DNA of 64,000 nucleotides, from assembly GCA_040767195.1 (NCBI GenBank), contig JAXGPA010000001.1, positions 544,001 to 608,000 of the forward strand, written 5' to 3'. Within the stretch, counting starts at the first letter, position 1; the number at the start of each line of letters is the position of its first letter. Both the position numbers and the translations under genes were made by a program. Under the pieces are notes generated by a model. It ran no database searches and was not told where the DNA came from. It worked only from the letters and a program-made list of their open reading frames with translations. Origin of the DNA: Syntrophales bacterium (lineage in GTDB: Bacteria > Desulfobacterota > Syntrophia > Syntrophales > UBA6807). Positions 55,960-64,000 of the stretch are shown piece after piece.

Positions 55960-56757
55960 TCAAAGGGGGTCGGACATCTCGATTTTTTCGACGACCCGGG
56001 ACATGATCTTTTCCATGACCTCCCCCGCCTTTCCATGGATGACCACGTGGGAATTGATGTCATAGGTGGTGGCGGTGAGATTGACGATGACCAGCCTGGC
56101 ACCTCCTTCGAGGGCATAGGCGGGCATGTAGGCCGCGGGGTACACGACCAGCGAGGATCCTATGACGAGAAAAAGATCACACTGCGAGGCCTCGCGGATA
56201 GCCGCCGACAGGACCGTGCCGGGAAGCTGCTCGCCGAAGAGGACGACATCGGGCTTCAGGATGCCGAAGCAGTCCGCACAGTACGGTGACTCATCCCCGC
56301 CGGCTACCCGTTCCATGATTTCCGCCAGGGGGGAACGCCGGTTGCAGTTGAGGCATCGGACATGGCTCATGGTCCCGTGCAGCTCGAAAACCCTTTCCGG
56401 ATCGTTTCCGGCCTTCTGATGAAGATTGTCGATATTCTGGGTGATGATTCCCCGGAGCCTGCCCCATTTTTCAAGACGGGCGAGGGCGTGGTGGGCCCTG
56501 TTCGGCTCGGCCCGGGTGAAGTGTCCCCCCTCGAGGAGAAATTTCCACTGCTTTTTTCTCGATTCCTCATCGTTGAGAAATTTTTCGATGGTGAAATCGG
56601 AGGGGTCGAACCGGGACCAGAGGCCCCCGGGGCTCCGGAAATCGGGAATTCCCGACTCGGTGCTGATTCCAGCGCCGGTAAACGCCACGATCTTTCTCGA
56701 TTGGACGATCAGGTCCGCCGCCTGATCGATCTCCCTGTCCGGTGTGATATCCGTCAT
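55960..56757 (-). CDS. cobB: Sir2-family NAD-dependent deacylase
   Basis: GAGISTESGIPDFR, TQNID, ELHG, CxxC..CxxC, GSSLVVYPAA. Confidence 0.94.
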   Translation of the reverse strand: MTDITPDREIDQAADLIVQSRKIVAFTGAGISTESGIPDFRSPGGLWSRFDPSDFTIEKFLNDEESRKKQWKFLLEGGHFTRAEPNRAHHALARLEKWGRLRGIITQNIDNLHQKAGNDPERVFELHGTMSHVRCLNCNRRSPLAEIMERVAGGDESPYCADCFGILKPDVVLFGEQLPGTVLSAAIREASQCDLFLVIGSSLVVYPAAYMPAYALEGGARLVIVNLTATTYDINSHVVIHGKAGEVMEKIMSRVVEKIEMSDPL

Positions 56758-56832
56758 GCCACCTGTCTCTTTTCCCGGATCCTGCCCTGCCGAAACACCG
56801 GGTGTCGAAAGAGGCGCCCCCGAAAGGCCGGC

Positions 56833-56994
56833 CTACTTTCCACTTTCCTCTTCCGCCGCGGCGGAAACTTTCTCTTTACGGCCCGCCACCCGGCAGGCAT
56901 TTCCCGCTCACGTCGAAATCCCCATTTTGGGGAGGATGACCCCCTGGACGACAATCCAGAGAATGAGAACGCCGATGAAAATGAGCCATTCCAT
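56833..56994 (-). CDS. Putative 53-aa membrane-anchored selenoprotein (UGA29 read as Sec)
   Basis: MEWLIFIGVLILWIVVQGVILPKMGIST-U-AGNACRVAGRKEKVSAAAEEESGK*; purine-rich RBS, TM helix, SECIS-like hairpin at 56881-56898. Confidence 0.68.
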
Positions 56995-57111
56995 TTTTGT
57001 CGTTTCCCTTCTTTTCGTTGCGCAAAAAGAAAAACATGGGCATAAAAGAAGACCCGGAAGGGCCGGCCCGCCGTGGCGGTCACAGTCGCCCGGGCCCACG
57101 CTTCTTTTGTA

Positions 57112-57120
57112 ATTATAACA
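57112..57120 (-). promoter_or_regulatory. Extended -10 promoter for the microprotein (and possibly the cobB operon)
   Basis: Minus strand TGTTATAAT (TGn-TATAAT). Confidence 0.55.
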
Positions 57121-57159
57121 TAGGCACGGCGGAAAGGAAACGCAAACCCTGTCCAGCCG

Positions 57160-57188
57160 TTGACATGAGGGCCCGATTTCTCTATACT
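57160..57188 (+). promoter_or_regulatory. Sigma70 promoter for the GGDEF gene
   Basis: TTGACA-17 nt-TATACT. Confidence 0.75.
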
Positions 57189-57303
57189 TTGCACCTCCGA
57201 AAAGGATTTCGCCGTGCCCGGAAATGCCCGGGAGGCCGGTTTTATCTCTCATTGAAAAACCCTTTCAGGATTGTCCGGCACCCTTGACCCGGAAGGACAG
57301 GAG

Positions 57304-58155
57304 ATGAAGAAGAAAGACCGTCGTGTCCCATCGACCCTGTCAAGGTTGAGTACCCTGGCCAAGGCTATCGCGTCGGGCCACTACCGGGACATGGACGCGG
57401 ATGATCTCTTTGCCATGACCGAGGAGAAGTACCCTCCGGAACTCCGCGAACTGGCGGAGGCCTTTGGCATGATGATGGTCAAGGTGGAGGCCCGGGAGTT
57501 CCGGCTCGAAGAAACCGTCGCCGAACTGGAAAAGGCCAACCGGAAACTCAAGGAGTACTCGGAGCACCTGAAAGATATGGTGGCGAAAAGAACGAAAGAA
57601 CTGGAGGAGGCCAACCGGAAACTCGAGAGAAGGGCCAACATCGACGGGCTGACCCACATCGCCAACCGGCGCTACATGGACGAATACCTTCAGAAGCACT
57701 GGAACCGTCTCAAGAACCAAAGAAAGCCCCTTGCCCTCATCATGGCCGATATCGATCATTTCAAGGGGTTCAACGACACGTACGGACACCAGGAGGGGGA
57801 TGAATGCCTGAAGACCATCGCCCGGATCCTTGACGAAAAGATGCGCCGTTCCGAAGACCTGGCGGCCCGCTACGGTGGGGAGGAGTTTGCCGTTCTTCTT
57901 CCGGGGACCGGCATCGAGGCCGCCATGGATATGGCCGAGGATATCCGACGGGAAGTGGAATCCCTCAAAATCCCCAATGAAAAAAATACCGCCAGCCCTT
58001 TCGTCACCATCAGCCTCGGGGTGACCGCCGGGATCCCTGGGGAAACAGGGACACCCGACGAACTCATCGAACGCGCCGACGAGGCCCTCTACGTGGCCAA
58101 AAAGGAACGGGGCCGGAACTGCACCGTGAAAGGGCGAACCCTCGGAAGCGCCTGA
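57304..58155 (+). CDS. Diguanylate cyclase (HAMP-like/coiled coil + GGEEF)
   Basis: DGLT, DIDHFK, YGH, RSED I-site, RYGGEEF; no TM segment. Confidence 0.92.
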   Translation: MKKKDRRVPSTLSRLSTLAKAIASGHYRDMDADDLFAMTEEKYPPELRELAEAFGMMMVKVEAREFRLEETVAELEKANRKLKEYSEHLKDMVAKRTKELEEANRKLERRANIDGLTHIANRRYMDEYLQKHWNRLKNQRKPLALIMADIDHFKGFNDTYGHQEGDECLKTIARILDEKMRRSEDLAARYGGEEFAVLLPGTGIEAAMDMAEDIRREVESLKIPNEKNTASPFVTISLGVTAGIPGETGTPDELIERADEALYVAKKERGRNCTVKGRTLGSA

Positions 58156-59574: not shown

Positions 59575-60018
59575 TTACTCCACTGCCTGTGCTTTCAGGA
59601 ACATGGCTTTTTCAAGGGAGGTGAAAAAACTCACGTAAGGCTGCGGGTCGATCACCGGCTCGATATTGAACTGGGCGTTCGCCCGGACCACGAGGCGCGA
59701 TTCCCCTCTCGGGCAGACGGTCACGGTCATCCTCAGGGCGTAGGTGTTCAATTTCGTCCCCGTCACCGAACCCAGGTCCAGATCGGCCTTGTCTATGATG
59801 AATCCCAGATCCTGGAGGGTCGCGATGACCGTTCGCATCGTCTTTTCCTTTTCCGCCGTCTCGAACACACGGCTTTGCATGTTTCTCAGCTGAACCGGGC
59901 TCATGCCCGCGTCCATCAATCTCTCATGGGTTGTCGCGCAGGCCAGGAAAAGAAACAGGGACAGGAAAACAGCCAGCTTCAACCCCTTTAATATAACCGT
60001 TTCGAAAAAACCTTTCAT
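59575..60018 (-). CDS. Hypothetical lipoprotein (paralog A)
   Basis: Lipobox FLAC; LQDLGF motif. Confidence 0.75.
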   Translation of the reverse strand: MKGFFETVILKGLKLAVFLSLFLFLACATTHERLMDAGMSPVQLRNMQSRVFETAEKEKTMRTVIATLQDLGFIIDKADLDLGSVTGTKLNTYALRMTVTVCPRGESRLVVRANAQFNIEPVIDPQPYVSFFTSLEKAMFLKAQAVE

Positions 60019-60554
60019 ACGCCCTGGGCCTCCAGAAAGACGGACTTGGACAGCCGTTCAAAAAAATCTTCGTATATCTTGACATCGCTGATCATTTCCC
60101 TTCGGCAAACCTGGCCCATGGTATTGAACACAATCCGCTGAAAGGTCACGCGAACGATGTGATGACCGGGGTCCGCGGGCCGGGTCACCACGCTGGCCCG
60201 CATGATCTGGTCCTTGTCCACCGACATGATAATGCCGGTCATCACGGCGAAAAGAACGGCGCCGACAACCTGCGCGGCCTTGACGGCGCTTCGGGTCTTG
60301 CAGCCCAGAAGGACGCCCAGTTCCGTCTCCGATTCCTCGATGGTGAACCCCAGGTCCTGGAGCAGGGCCGCGCTGGCCGAGAGGATTCTTTTTTCGTCGG
60401 CCGTGTCGAACCGCCGTGTCTGCAGTTGCCGGTGCTTCAGTGACTCCGGTGTCAGCATGAGAGCTTCCCGGGGAATCTTGGGCTGGCAGGCCGAAAGCAG
60501 AAGGATGGAAAGAATCGCCGACAGGATCCTGAGTCGATTTCCATGACGTTTCAC
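60015..60554 (-). CDS. Hypothetical lipoprotein (paralog B)
   Basis: GAGG RBS and GTG start; lipobox LSAC; LQDLGF motif. Confidence 0.75.
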   Translation of the reverse strand: MKRHGNRLRILSAILSILLLSACQPKIPREALMLTPESLKHRQLQTRRFDTADEKRILSASAALLQDLGFTIEESETELGVLLGCKTRSAVKAAQVVGAVLFAVMTGIIMSVDKDQIMRASVVTRPADPGHHIVRVTFQRIVFNTMGQVCRREMISDVKIYEDFFERLSKSVFLEAQGV

Positions 60555-60564
60555 GGCCGTAACC

Positions 60565-61026
60565 TCAGAAGCGGGAAGCGTGATAGGCAAAATCCCGCAC
60601 CTTTTTCCCCTCGTCGAACTTGATGATCACCGTCAGGGTCCGCTGGCTTGTGGATTCAGCCCCGGCCTCCTTGGAATACCCCGGCGCCGCGCCGCCTCCC
60701 AAGGCGCCCGACCCGCCCGTCAAAAGGCCCAGGATGAGCGCCGAAACACCGCCCCGGCTGGCCGAATAGGCCCGATCGGTAGCGATCCTGTCATAGATCC
60801 AGACCTCGCGGCCCATTTCGTCCGTCGACACGATATTCGGCGATCCCAGGACCTGGGCCACCTCGGTGCCCGACATCCCCACCCGGATTTCCTTCTGAAC
60901 CGTCCCTACGGTCAGCCGGTCACCGGGAAGGGCTTTTCCCACGTCACCGGCGTGGTCGACGGCACTGACGCAGCCACTAAGAAAAAAAAGGAGGAAAAAT
61001 AGAACGGCAAATTCAGTATTTTTCAT
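60565..61026 (-). CDS. SmpA/OmlA(BamE)-like lipoprotein
   Basis: GGAGG RBS; lipobox LSGC; IRVGMS..EV..VLGSP, WIY, L.VIIKFD. Confidence 0.7.
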   Translation of the reverse strand: MKNTEFAVLFFLLFFLSGCVSAVDHAGDVGKALPGDRLTVGTVQKEIRVGMSGTEVAQVLGSPNIVSTDEMGREVWIYDRIATDRAYSASRGGVSALILGLLTGGSGALGGGAAPGYSKEAGAESTSQRTLTVIIKFDEGKKVRDFAYHASRF

Positions 61027-61102
61027 ATGACCTCCCTGGAAATAATGGTTTCTTTTGCGAGTCACGCCTGCCTCACGGGAAGGCCCCATTCAGCAGCATC
61101 CT

Positions 61103-61432
61103 TTAGTGACAGCGATCACCCTCCAAGCGATAACCTACGATAATCCCATCTCGATTTACCTCGAAATGGACAAAGCATCCTTTCCAATTCGGTAAAACAT
61201 ATACCCAATTCCCATTTTCCATCCCGTATGTTTTCTCCTCCCAATTGATTTTATGTTTATAGGTTCGAGGATCGGATGTGTCTCTGGTAACAATTTCTCT
61301 CAATTCATCGATATGCTTTCCAATACAAGATTTCGCCCAATAATTCGTTGGCGGAACAGACACACACCCGACAAAAAGAATACAGAAAATGAGTATCTCA
61401 AAGTTGAGCTTGAACAGGATGTTTTCTTTCAT
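61103..61432 (-). CDS. Hypothetical lipoprotein, candidate immunity protein
   Basis: Lipobox FVGC; AT-rich; downstream of Rhs. Confidence 0.6.
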   Translation of the reverse strand: MKENILFKLNFEILIFCILFVGCVSVPPTNYWAKSCIGKHIDELREIVTRDTSDPRTYKHKINWEEKTYGMENGNWVYVLPNWKGCFVHFEVNRDGIIVGYRLEGDRCH

Positions 61433-61474
61433 GAAGTTGAATTACTTACTTTTGTTTAGTCAGAACATACATCA

Positions 61475-62089
61475 TTACTTTGCTTTCCATCTTTGAATCC
61501 AATCATCTGCTAATTCTCTGGCTTTTTCCCTCTGGTCAGCGGTCATTCGTGATTCCAGTTTTTCTCTCACTTTCTTGGAATCTTTCATAATATATTGACA
61601 CTCCACTATATACTTTGGGCTGTTGGTTACAAAGTTGGTAACAATATTTAGCCACTTTAATCCCTCAATATCATTCGATATTATTGTTAGCCTCTCCGAA
61701 TACATTTCAGCAAGATCATAAATGGCACAACGATGCCCTTTTTCTGCACCCTTTAAAAAGTATTCTTCAGCCAATAAGCAATTTTTTGAAACATTTCCTT
61801 TTCCATGGCGATAAATTGTGCCAACGAACCAATATGACTGAATATCGCCAAGTTGAATGGCTTTCTTGTACCAAAAGAGTGCTTTTTCATGATTTTCAGG
61901 TAAACCAGGTTTATAATTATAGAGATGCGCCAACTTTTGCGCAGCTATTGGGTCACCCTGTTCGGCACCGGCTTCATAAAGATCGGCTGCCTGTAAGTAA
62001 TGACCTGCTCTTCGTGCAGCATCACCAGGTGTAATACTGCAAGCTGAAGTTATTATAATCATGAGCAACATAATCACGAGATGCCGCAT
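61475..62089 (-). CDS. Sel1-repeat lipoprotein, candidate Rhs immunity protein
   Basis: GGAG RBS; lipobox TSAC; GAEQGD..A, A.FWY.KA...G, Y..GKGNV.KN repeats. Confidence 0.8.
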   Translation of the reverse strand: MRHLVIMLLMIIITSACSITPGDAARRAGHYLQAADLYEAGAEQGDPIAAQKLAHLYNYKPGLPENHEKALFWYKKAIQLGDIQSYWFVGTIYRHGKGNVSKNCLLAEEYFLKGAEKGHRCAIYDLAEMYSERLTIISNDIEGLKWLNIVTNFVTNSPKYIVECQYIMKDSKKVREKLESRMTADQREKARELADDWIQRWKAK

Positions 62090-62154
62090 ATTTAATACTC
62101 CATAAATGAAAATAATCTGGAAATTGATATCGATACATCTAATTGATATATTTA

Positions 62155-64000
62155 TCAATATTTCTTCTGAAGAATGTGCATCATGACTAAGCTTTCTATG
62201 TCCGATGCCATTAGAGCGGGATAAGTAATCACTGCAGCCGGAATCATTCCCGGCCAGCAAAATACCTCTCTTAAACCCCACTGTCCCAGCCATATTTGAA
62301 AATTATCATGAACCCCTGCAATTGCATTAATTCCAGGTATCTGATTAGCGGCAAGTGAAACGGGACCGCCTTCATCTAAAAATCTTTCCCCTGGTATCCT
62401 TGTGGCATAGCCGACATTATTATTTTCTTTACATGGTGCAGTATTTAGGTTCTTACATACAGCCTCATCGCCAGATTCCCATGTTGCGCTATAATTCGTT
62501 ATTTTGTAATAGGTATAAGCTGCTGATGCCATCGCGAGAGCGACAAGAACTCCCTTATCCACGCTTCCCCCTGACAATGCAGCTACAGCACCGCCTGCCA
62601 CCGAGTGAAGAGCCACGCGCCCCAACGTCCACAAATCTCCATAATAACCGGCTATGGCACCAAAAGCCGCTCCACTTATGGCCCCCATGCCGGCCCCGCT
62701 CATGATGCCCTGCCAGATATTCCCGGAGGTAAACATGGCGTTTAGTCCCCCGGCAGTCGCTCCTGCCGCAATACCACCGACAGCGCTGGAAACAATCGTT
62801 CCACCGACAGTTTTACCTATTGCCCCGGCGACATAGCCGCTTACATCGGCGAAGACACCGCCTGAGATTCCTCCAATAGTGACTCCAAGCATCGTGGCGC
62901 CAAAATCCCAATTACTCTGAACCGCAGCAAAAATGCCTCCAAGAATAGCCCCTACTATGAATCCCGTTCCAAAAAAATGTCCGCTCGGGTCGATATAAAT
63001 GAGGGGATTGTTCCGGCAGTAAGCATACCGGTTGAGGATCTGGGGGTCATAGGGATCCTGGACAATGGGATCCGGGGAGACGAACCTTCCCAGGGCGGGG
63101 TCGTAGAGCCGGGCGTTGAAGTTGTAGAGCCCCGATTCGGTGTCCATCTCCTGGTCGGTGAACTTGTAGTCGGTGGTCCAGGTGCCCCCGTGCTCCCGGA
63201 TTTCCCCGAAGGGGAGGTATTCCGCCGACTCGACGACCCGGCCCTGGCTGTCCGTCAGGACCGCCGAGCTCCCCAGGTGGTCCTTGTGGTAATAGCTCGT
63301 GACGCCGTTTCTGATCTCGGCGACCCGGATGGTCCCGGCGAAGATATAGGTGACCGCCCGGCCGTTTGTGATGTGACAGGCGTCGTCGACGTAGAGGGTC
63401 TCCGAGACCACCGCCGGGTCGATGGAGGTCCCCCTCGTAAGCTTCAGGGAAAGGACCGTCTTTTTCGTCCTTTTCCCTTCCCCGTCGTAGGTAAACCGGA
63501 CCCTGACGGGGGCGGTCCTGTCCTTGTAGGTGATCTCTTCGGGCCTGCCCTCCGCCGTCCAGGAAAGGGCCCGCCAGCCCGGATTAGACGGGTCGGAAAG
63601 ATCGGGGCCGTAGACGAGGTTGCCGTTTCCGTCGTAGCTCAGGTAGTGGACCTTCCCGTTCACCGAAACGGATCTCAGGGCGTGGGGGCGGCTTTTGTCG
63701 TAGCCGAAGGTGAAGGAAACGCCGCCCGCCCGTTTGGATGTCATGTTCCCGATCCCATCGTAGGACCAGGTGTCCGTCGATACGGCGCTCCCTTTTATCC
63801 TTCTTTCCGAGGTGAGCCGGTGGAGGCCGTCATAGGTATAATCATAGGTGATGCTTTTCAGGCCGTCCGTTATCCGCTTCAGGTCCCCCGCCCTGGTGTA
63901 TCGATAGCTCTTCTCCTGGAGGACCTCCCCCGTCCTGCCCGTCGTCGTGAGGGACAAAAGCCGGGTGGACTTCGGGTCGTACCCGTAGATCGTCGCCGTC
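62155..64000 (-). CDS. Rhs/YD-repeat protein, 3' part with C-terminal toxin domain (5' end outside window)
   Basis: YTYDGLHRL, DHLGS, Y.PFG, ESGLY...ARLYDP.LGRF.SPDP, NPLIYIDPSG; frame stays open to the window end. Confidence 0.93.
   Translation of the reverse strand, partial: TATIYGYDPKSTRLLSLTTTGRTGEVLQEKSYRYTRAGDLKRITDGLKSITYDYTYDGLHRLTSERRIKGSAVSTDTWSYDGIGNMTSKRAGGVSFTFGYDKSRPHALRSVSVNGKVHYLSYDGNGNLVYGPDLSDPSNPGWRALSWTAEGRPEEITYKDRTAPVRVRFTYDGEGKRTKKTVLSLKLTRGTSIDPAVVSETLYVDDACHITNGRAVTYIFAGTIRVAEIRNGVTSYYHKDHLGSSAVLTDSQGRVVESAEYLPFGEIREHGGTWTTDYKFTDQEMDTESGLYNFNARLYDPALGRFVSPDPIVQDPYDPQILNRYAYCRNNPLIYIDPSGHFFGTGFIVGAILGGIFAAVQSNWDFGATMLGVTIGGISGGVFADVSGYVAGAIGKTVGGTIVSSAVGGIAAGATAGGLNAMFTSGNIWQGIMSGAGMGAISGAAFGAIAGYYGDLWTLGRVALHSVAGGAVAALSGGSVDKGVLVALAMASAAYTYYKITNYSATWESGDEAVCKNLNTAPCKENNNVGYATRIPGERFLDEGGPVSLAANQIPGINAIAGVHDNFQIWLGQWGLREVFCWPGMIPAAVITYPALMASDIESLVMMHILQKKY

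Follow-up and report, generated by a model that had tools for sequence, protein, structure and literature searches.

A 53-codon gene with an in-frame UGA in a Syntrophales genome belongs to an already predicted selenoprotein family

Selenocysteine (Sec) is inserted in bacteria at an in-frame UGA codon when the complex of SelB, GTP and Sec-tRNA binds the loop of a hairpin lying 3′ of that codon. In elements of the fdhF/FdhA type (bSECIS), the hairpin is located within the open reading frame just 3′ of the UGA, with its loop at 16 nt and a G early in the loop. Among eukaryotic selenoproteins, SELENOK and SELENOS have one membrane helix and, on the cytosolic side, a disordered tail with Sec near the C-terminus; their SECIS element lies in the 3′-UTR. 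A current model of the bacterial element calls for a hairpin with a stem of 4–16 bp and a minimum free energy of −7.5 kcal/mol or lower, whose loop lies 16–37 nt downstream of the UGA and has G in its first two positions (PMC13188914, section 5). Closest to the gene described here is a family that stands among the known selenoproteins of deep-Sep Data S1, where it carries a label only; the accessible portion of that source offers neither a model nor a function for it, and describes no Cys branch and no gene context.

In this study, we analysed a 64,000-nucleotide stretch of DNA from a Syntrophales bacterium (the window), in which the first-pass annotation had singled out an unannotated minus-strand gene as a candidate new selenoprotein. 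By its sequence, matched by eye to the available part of Data S1, the gene is a member of this already predicted family without a described function, so that novelty does not hold at the family level. The six Data S1 sequences share with it a helix, the motif LPxxGxxT-U-xxxxC and a charged tail; 16 of the 24 residues from W13 to V36 are identical, with no gap, to those of the second entry (counted by eye, with no score), and no essential difference was seen, an Ala following U in the present member. 'Unknown (Geobacter lovleyi)' is listed for five organisms in Table S3 of PMC5029168 (2016), which in its accessible part gives no sequence, and the link to the present family is therefore by name alone. 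There is no 'lovleyi' entry in the available part of deep-Sep Table S1 or of a 2026 review (PMC13188914), whose Table 1 of 119 families holds no matchable entry; a term search of the accessible text of PMC9312934 and PMC2398784 did not find this family, and the portion of the BSepDB main text consulted has no matching entry. Full-text literature searches for the Cys motif, and for Geobacter lovleyi together with selenoprotein and selenocysteine, gave no match, and a looser search led to one listing, on a porin. In Pfam and NCBIfam the 53-residue protein has no score over a curated cut-off and the family has no model: none of 29 Sec members matches NCBIfam, and none of 55 Cys members has a convincing match in either collection (best E value 0.002, arabinan synthesis).

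The present work adds the range of the family, its Cys branch, the contrast in hairpins between TGA and Cys genes, a link to thioredoxin and a set of sulfur-handling neighbours. Most database entries for the family protein are 29-residue stubs that stop at the UGA; with such stubs and no Pfam or NCBIfam model, a very common member is probably overlooked when selenoproteomes are counted in syntrophic bacteria and in anaerobic bacteria of the sulfur cycle. We tentatively suggest, as a possibility of somewhat less than even weight, that few selenoproteins are commoner than this family in sulfate reducers and syntrophs (it occurs in 181 of the 401 genomes sampled, where the 2016 table has five organisms), and that the protein forms a minimal Sec/Cys relay, tethered to the membrane, through which thioredoxin of the cytoplasm is coupled to stress and sulfane-sulfur chemistry at the inner membrane. 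In design it would be a bacterial counterpart of SELENOK/S. With 53 residues, natural Cys versions and natural thioredoxin fusions, the protein is accessible by peptide synthesis and directly testable, and gives a minimal system in which to compare Sec with Cys at the surface of a membrane.

Layout and surroundings of the gene

The features of the locus are as follows.

56833..56994, minus strand: predicted selenoprotein gene of 53 codons, ATG to TAG, with an in-frame TGA at codon 29 (sequence, relatives and the deep-Sep Data S1 family)
57005..57011, minus strand: Shine–Dalgarno-like GAAGGGA, 10 nt 5′ of the start (sequence)
57112..57120, minus strand: putative extended −10 promoter-like element TG-n-TATAAT, with a poor −35 (from sequence; no entry in the consensus scan)
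56932..56988, minus strand: predicted single transmembrane helix, residues 3–21 (hydropathy; AlphaFold helix 3–23, pLDDT about 86 over residues 1–20)
56908..56910, minus strand: UGA, predicted Sec codon (U29), aligned with Cys in homologues (sequence comparison; same in contigs of three runs)
56893..56895, minus strand: C34 codon, which gives the second Cys of UxxxxC and lies on the 5′ side of the hairpin stem (97 of 107 TGA genes and all 31 Cys genes have Cys at +5)
56881..56898, minus strand: predicted bSECIS hairpin, 7-bp stem, GGGU loop from 16 nt after the UGA (sequence and folding; G at +18, position 56890)

This layout agrees with the first-pass annotation: behind GAAGGGA, the ATG at 56994 opens 28 codons, the TGA occupies 56910–56908 and 24 further codons lead to the TAG at 56833. 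When the TGA is read as U, the 53-residue product is a hydrophobic helix (mean hydropathy 2.7 over residues 3–21) followed by U29, C34 and a charged tail, as had been described for the read-through UxxxxC protein with one transmembrane helix. Apart from the helix, its AlphaFold model is of low confidence (pTM 0.39), and a comparison with solved structures found no structural relative (best E value 0.13). RNA-library contigs from three runs of one study cross the TGA with no alternative letter, and the TGA is therefore not a sequencing error; these contigs span the gene but cannot demonstrate transcription, and a further run (X5) gave it no coverage. The 53-codon gene is real. The promoter of its own that had been proposed for it is plausible: the extended −10 element (57120–57112) speaks for it, the poor −35 and its absence from the consensus promoter scan against it.

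Two further hairpins were seen in the leader, a predicted 12-bp A/U-rich one over the Shine–Dalgarno sequence (57035–57002, minus strand) and a terminator-like one (57064–57051, minus strand). Neither is conserved in L019, the closest named locus (a Syntrophaceae bacterium, 58% identity), or folds better than shuffles. A riboswitch in the leader was considered and rejected, there being no Rfam match at 56600–57400, no conserved leader in the closest named relative and a fold z-score of −0.98 against shuffles. The neighbours in the window, a gene for a Sir2-family deacylase 75 nt downstream, TANGO2 and Nudix genes and a divergent GGDEF gene, are not common to L019 and say nothing about a redox role. 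A near-consensus sigma-70 promoter (11/12; 57160–57188, plus strand) precedes this divergent HAMP-GGDEF gene (57271–58155). Elsewhere in the window, an RHS-repeat frame, then a Sel1-repeat frame and small lipoprotein-like frames (62155–63957 and 59575–62293, both minus strand) resemble a polymorphic toxin–immunity array.

The predicted hairpin (56898–56881) begins 9 nt past the UGA, its seven pairs including one G–U pair, and its energy is about −13 kcal/mol; with G in the first two loop positions it agrees with all four properties of the bSECIS model in the available text of PMC13188914. It is like the fdhF/FdhA-type elements in position, loop distance and early loop G, and differs from them in that its stem holds the codon of the second Cys, so that RNA and protein constraints overlap. 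Taken alone, the hairpin is not significant (z-score −1.06 against shuffles), although an equally stable one follows only 10 of 4000 random TGAs of the same genome; the case for a selenoprotein is built on the relatives.

Relatives and conservation across the UGA

Profile A1, made from 29 relatives of the protein, is the source of the phylum count given above (181 of 401 genomes) and also matches 81 of 201 genomes of the order. An in-frame TGA is present in all 150 of the phylum matches listed, 37 further matches lying outside that list, and in 87 of 88 order matches, the exception spanning only profile positions 1–21. Protein searches returned 788 and 1217 matches, among them one named database stub of the family, the 29-residue DENIS_2149 of Desulfonema ishimotonii. 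Of 262 proteins fetched, 153 stop at the residue before the site, 41 have W, 34 have C (query included) and five have another residue there; the remaining 29 fall outside the search pattern and are, by eye, mostly Cys forms. The Cys branch amounts to 55 proteins in which P, G, T, C and C are invariant (55/55), and it aligns with A1 at an HHalign probability of 99.8%. The best 80 of 504 metagenome loci reduce to 66 distinct ones with 35 TGA, 24 TGC and seven TGT codons at the site, none having TGG, TAA or TAG; Cys versions thus make up 31 of these 66. Cys homologues with a conserved downstream Cys, for which the first-pass annotation had advised a search, do align at position 29 and keep that residue, and TAA or TAG occurs at the Sec site in none of the loci examined.

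Conservation continues past the UGA. In the 107 distinct TGA genes analysed, two others truncated at contig ends being left out, the frame of the gene is open over 11 codons past the TGA in all 107, against 39 and 77 for the other two frames; the matches came from profiles that cover the post-TGA region, which favours both an open frame and the Cys at +5. The residue after U is M, L, V or I in 105 of them, the Ala of the present member being matched in two of the 107. True stops vary (43 TGA, 34 TAA and 30 TAG), with tails of 11–70 residues. Before the site, L-P-x-x-G-x-x-T is invariant in 107 of 107 with full synonymous variation, a conservation that comes partly from the selection of matches, the motif having belonged to the search profile. 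No Cys is found within the next eight residues in eight of the 107, and the Sec/Cys pair is therefore not obligatory; in the loci L117–L124, which lack it there, the UGA is kept and the hairpin mostly kept, and L119, L120 and L123 have a Cys further along the tail.

When the requirements were a perfect stem of 4 bp or more, a G-led loop 16–20 nt downstream and an energy of at most −3 kcal/mol, a hairpin was found in 84 of 107 TGA genes, in one of 31 Cys genes and after 466 of 4000 random TGAs; at −7.5 kcal/mol the counts were 36 of 107, 0 of 31 and 86 of 4000. These counts include kin, so that the genes are not independent, but the contrast between TGA and Cys genes is large all the same. The test accepts perfect stems only, and 23 of the 107 TGA genes fail it, as do two of the four FdhA-type genes of the same genome. 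Among 29 close relatives, the G at +18 (56890) is kept in all 29, and three of the seven stem pairs have changes on both sides. Together, the conserved TGA, the sequence kept after it, the Cys homologues, the TGA-specific hairpin, and the selA, selB and TGA-containing FdhA-type genes described below support the selenoprotein reading of the first-pass annotation; none of the three refuting outcomes that it had named was decisively observed. SelB would bind the hairpin 3′ of the UGA and insert Sec at residue 29, and we consider it very probable that codon 29 is read in this way.

A tree of 138 cores over 37 columns requires seven changes between Sec and Cys; it is a quick tree, compatible with a single origin. 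No members were found in viral contigs or in plasmids. One unnamed ESM Atlas cluster (score 0.91, 123 members, most commonly Planctomycetota, with the phylum known for five) is a lead only. A repeat protein among the matches (P0201) was set aside as spurious. Membership in YgaP-like_TM/DUF2892 (PF11127), a family with two helices and a C-P motif, was rejected on the single helix, the lack of C-P before the site and the 0 of 55 Cys members that match; HHalign against the YgaP-like family gave a probability of 45% with a nine-residue gap. Proteins of this kind are frequent neighbours (six loci), and some end in a similar L-x-x-x-G-I-x-x-C.

Possible role at the inner membrane

The helix probably has its short N-terminus outside and its Lys/Arg-rich tail in the cytoplasm. 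In 130 of 140 sequences, the C-terminal side has more Lys and Arg than the six residues at the N-terminus (unequal windows, 23 versus 6 residues), which by the positive-inside rule points to this N-out/C-in topology. U29 and C34 would then lie at the cytoplasmic face of the inner membrane, where the pair would most likely cycle between selenol/thiol and selenenyl-sulfide or persulfide, the oxidized form being re-reduced by cytoplasmic thioredoxin; such a relay may act in the handling of reactive sulfur and of oxidative and nitrosative stress, as gene fusion and neighbours suggest. The likeness to SELENOK and SELENOS is one of architecture, a comparison of design and not of homology, and in the present protein Sec is only about eight residues from the helix, with the hairpin inside the reading frame. 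The reading as a whole, Sec insertion together with a membrane-tethered, cytoplasm-facing Sec/Cys relay served by thioredoxin, draws its functional part from comparison of genes, and we give it about an even chance.

The link to thioredoxin comes from fusions and from gene order. In L177, L208, P0264 and P0265 a single reading frame joins the module to a WCGPC thioredoxin, and P0263 looks like a frameshifted join of the two genes; every fusion observed is a Cys form from a metagenome assembly. Of 140 loci, 18 (nine Sec and nine Cys, two fusions included) have a thioredoxin domain no more than 1 kb away, in each case on the same strand, against three of 1079 windows of this genome; some of the 18 are close kin, and the DNA examined at the other 122 loci has no thioredoxin. 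A complex prediction for the natural Cys-form/thioredoxin neighbour pair of L140 gave no answer (score 0.00, controls not folded) and is neutral on binding.

The other neighbours include what we take to be sulfane-sulfur, thiol-redox and stress genes. Among 95 metagenome neighbours scanned, from 121 frames picked, there are ten DUF302, six zf-HC2, five rhodanese (four with a metallo-beta-lactamase domain), four YgaP-like, two TauE, two CoA-disulfide-reductase-like and two desulfoferrodoxin proteins, and one each of YeeE/YedE, DsrE and OsmC. The 149 neighbours at genome loci include eight YgbA, six thioredoxin, three FmdB-type zinc-ribbon, two ArsP-HMA and two YgaP-like proteins, and four that are the upstream 4Fe-4S protein of a hybrid-cluster-protein cluster; many others are unrelated or unannotated. 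A conserved protein of 142 residues with no Pfam hit is encoded 2–16 nt after the family gene in nine related loci (L084–L094 and L104; about 200–650 nt from the start of the family gene, same strand).

The first-pass annotation had left the role as redox or metal-binding. This is plausible, and the fusions and neighbours narrow the choice, by inference, towards the thioredoxin-linked role. Binding of a soft metal or metalloid (Cu, Hg, As or Zn) by U29 and C34, as a membrane buffer or as an accessory of an efflux permease, is an unlikely alternative. In its favour, the gene follows directly on that of an ArsP-type permease with an HMA domain in L024 and L031 (three related loci in the clustering), genes for a MerR regulator (L126) and for a DUF364/DUF4213 protein (L114) are adjacent, some members have extra Cys residues (e.g. 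CC), and zf-HC2 anti-sigma genes are adjacent in six loci. Metal-resistance neighbours are fewer than those for thioredoxin and sulfur transfer, however, and among the four longer matches from 8000 scored candidates there is no fusion to a metal-binding domain, the sole zf-HC2 match looking like read-through from the upstream gene.

A little less likely again is that the selenoprotein is an accessory subunit or regulator of a membrane complex (e.g. DsbD/CcdA, YeeE/YedE or YgaP-like) in which Sec serves as a redox switch and not as a relay. The invariant LPxxGxxT suggests a binding surface, but part of that invariance reflects how the matches were selected. L133 and L138 place the gene directly upstream of a DsbD-thioredoxin gene, and by HHalign the protein weakly resembles YgaP-like proteins in their C-terminal half; against this, no single partner gene is common to more than ten clustered genome loci.

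Sec machinery and other decodings of the UGA

The first-pass suggestion to look for the sel genes had a divided outcome. selA and selB score over their cut-offs, and four of nine molybdopterin-oxidoreductase matches have one in-frame TGA each, in the U-H motif of FdhA-type proteins; searches of this assembly for selC (tRNA-Sec) and selD found neither, and a relaxed tRNA scan gave only noise. The assembly is rated 98.8% complete and contains 39 tRNAs, with none for Ser or Asn. In a genome of the same genus (G079), a block matches this one up to the end of contig C1; beyond that point it carries two tRNA-Ser genes and dnaX/recR-like genes without a close match here, and the G079 regions around selC and selD, with uvrA-, nadA-, alr- and ddl-like genes (named from reading the translations), are likewise unmatched. 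The missing selC and selD are therefore probably due to an assembly gap, a sizeable block having remained unassembled. Elsewhere, tRNA-Sec is over the cut-off in five of five family genomes and selD in 15 of 21 genomes; selB is present in 174 of 181 carrier genomes, the other seven being drafts of 85–95% completeness, but this co-occurrence is a weak test since 372 of the 401 sampled genomes have selB.

That codon 29 is not read as Sec at all is very improbable. Within that small remainder, the UGA could be an ordinary stop that ends a 28-residue membrane peptide, with an incidental hairpin. The many fetched proteins that end before the site, the absence of selC and selD from the assembly and the insignificance of the hairpin when taken alone fit such a stop, and a short form is probably also made under Se limitation. 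Gene callers, however, end at TGA by rule; no TAA or TAG replaces it, the motif downstream recurs in the Cys homologues, the frame stays open with its Cys at +5 (profiles that include the post-TGA part favouring open frames), and the hairpin is confined almost wholly to TGA genes, so that we regard an ordinary stop as highly improbable. Least credible is read-through as Trp (code 4) or Cys, suggested by the W in 41 fetched proteins and by the additional tRNA with anticodon TCA that the same-genus genome has next to another selB-like gene, since none of the 66 metagenome loci has TGG, from which the W forms are probably code-4 gene calls, and TGA is the terminal stop of many reading frames in this genome.

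The second TCA-anticodon tRNA of G079 (contig C15; L070:7918–9994) lies directly before the second, divergent selB-like gene, which has 43% identity to SelB of the present genome and stands behind 2-hydroxyacyl-CoA-dehydratase-like genes; the pair presumably recalls the selC*/SelB* systems with Cys-inserting selC* tRNAs. About two dozen genomes of the phylum have at least two selB matches. A dispersed repeat of about 100–130 bp occurs in at least 15 places in the present genome (C1:27198–27321, C1:233130–233255 and C6:91558–91686 among them) and is also found in G079.
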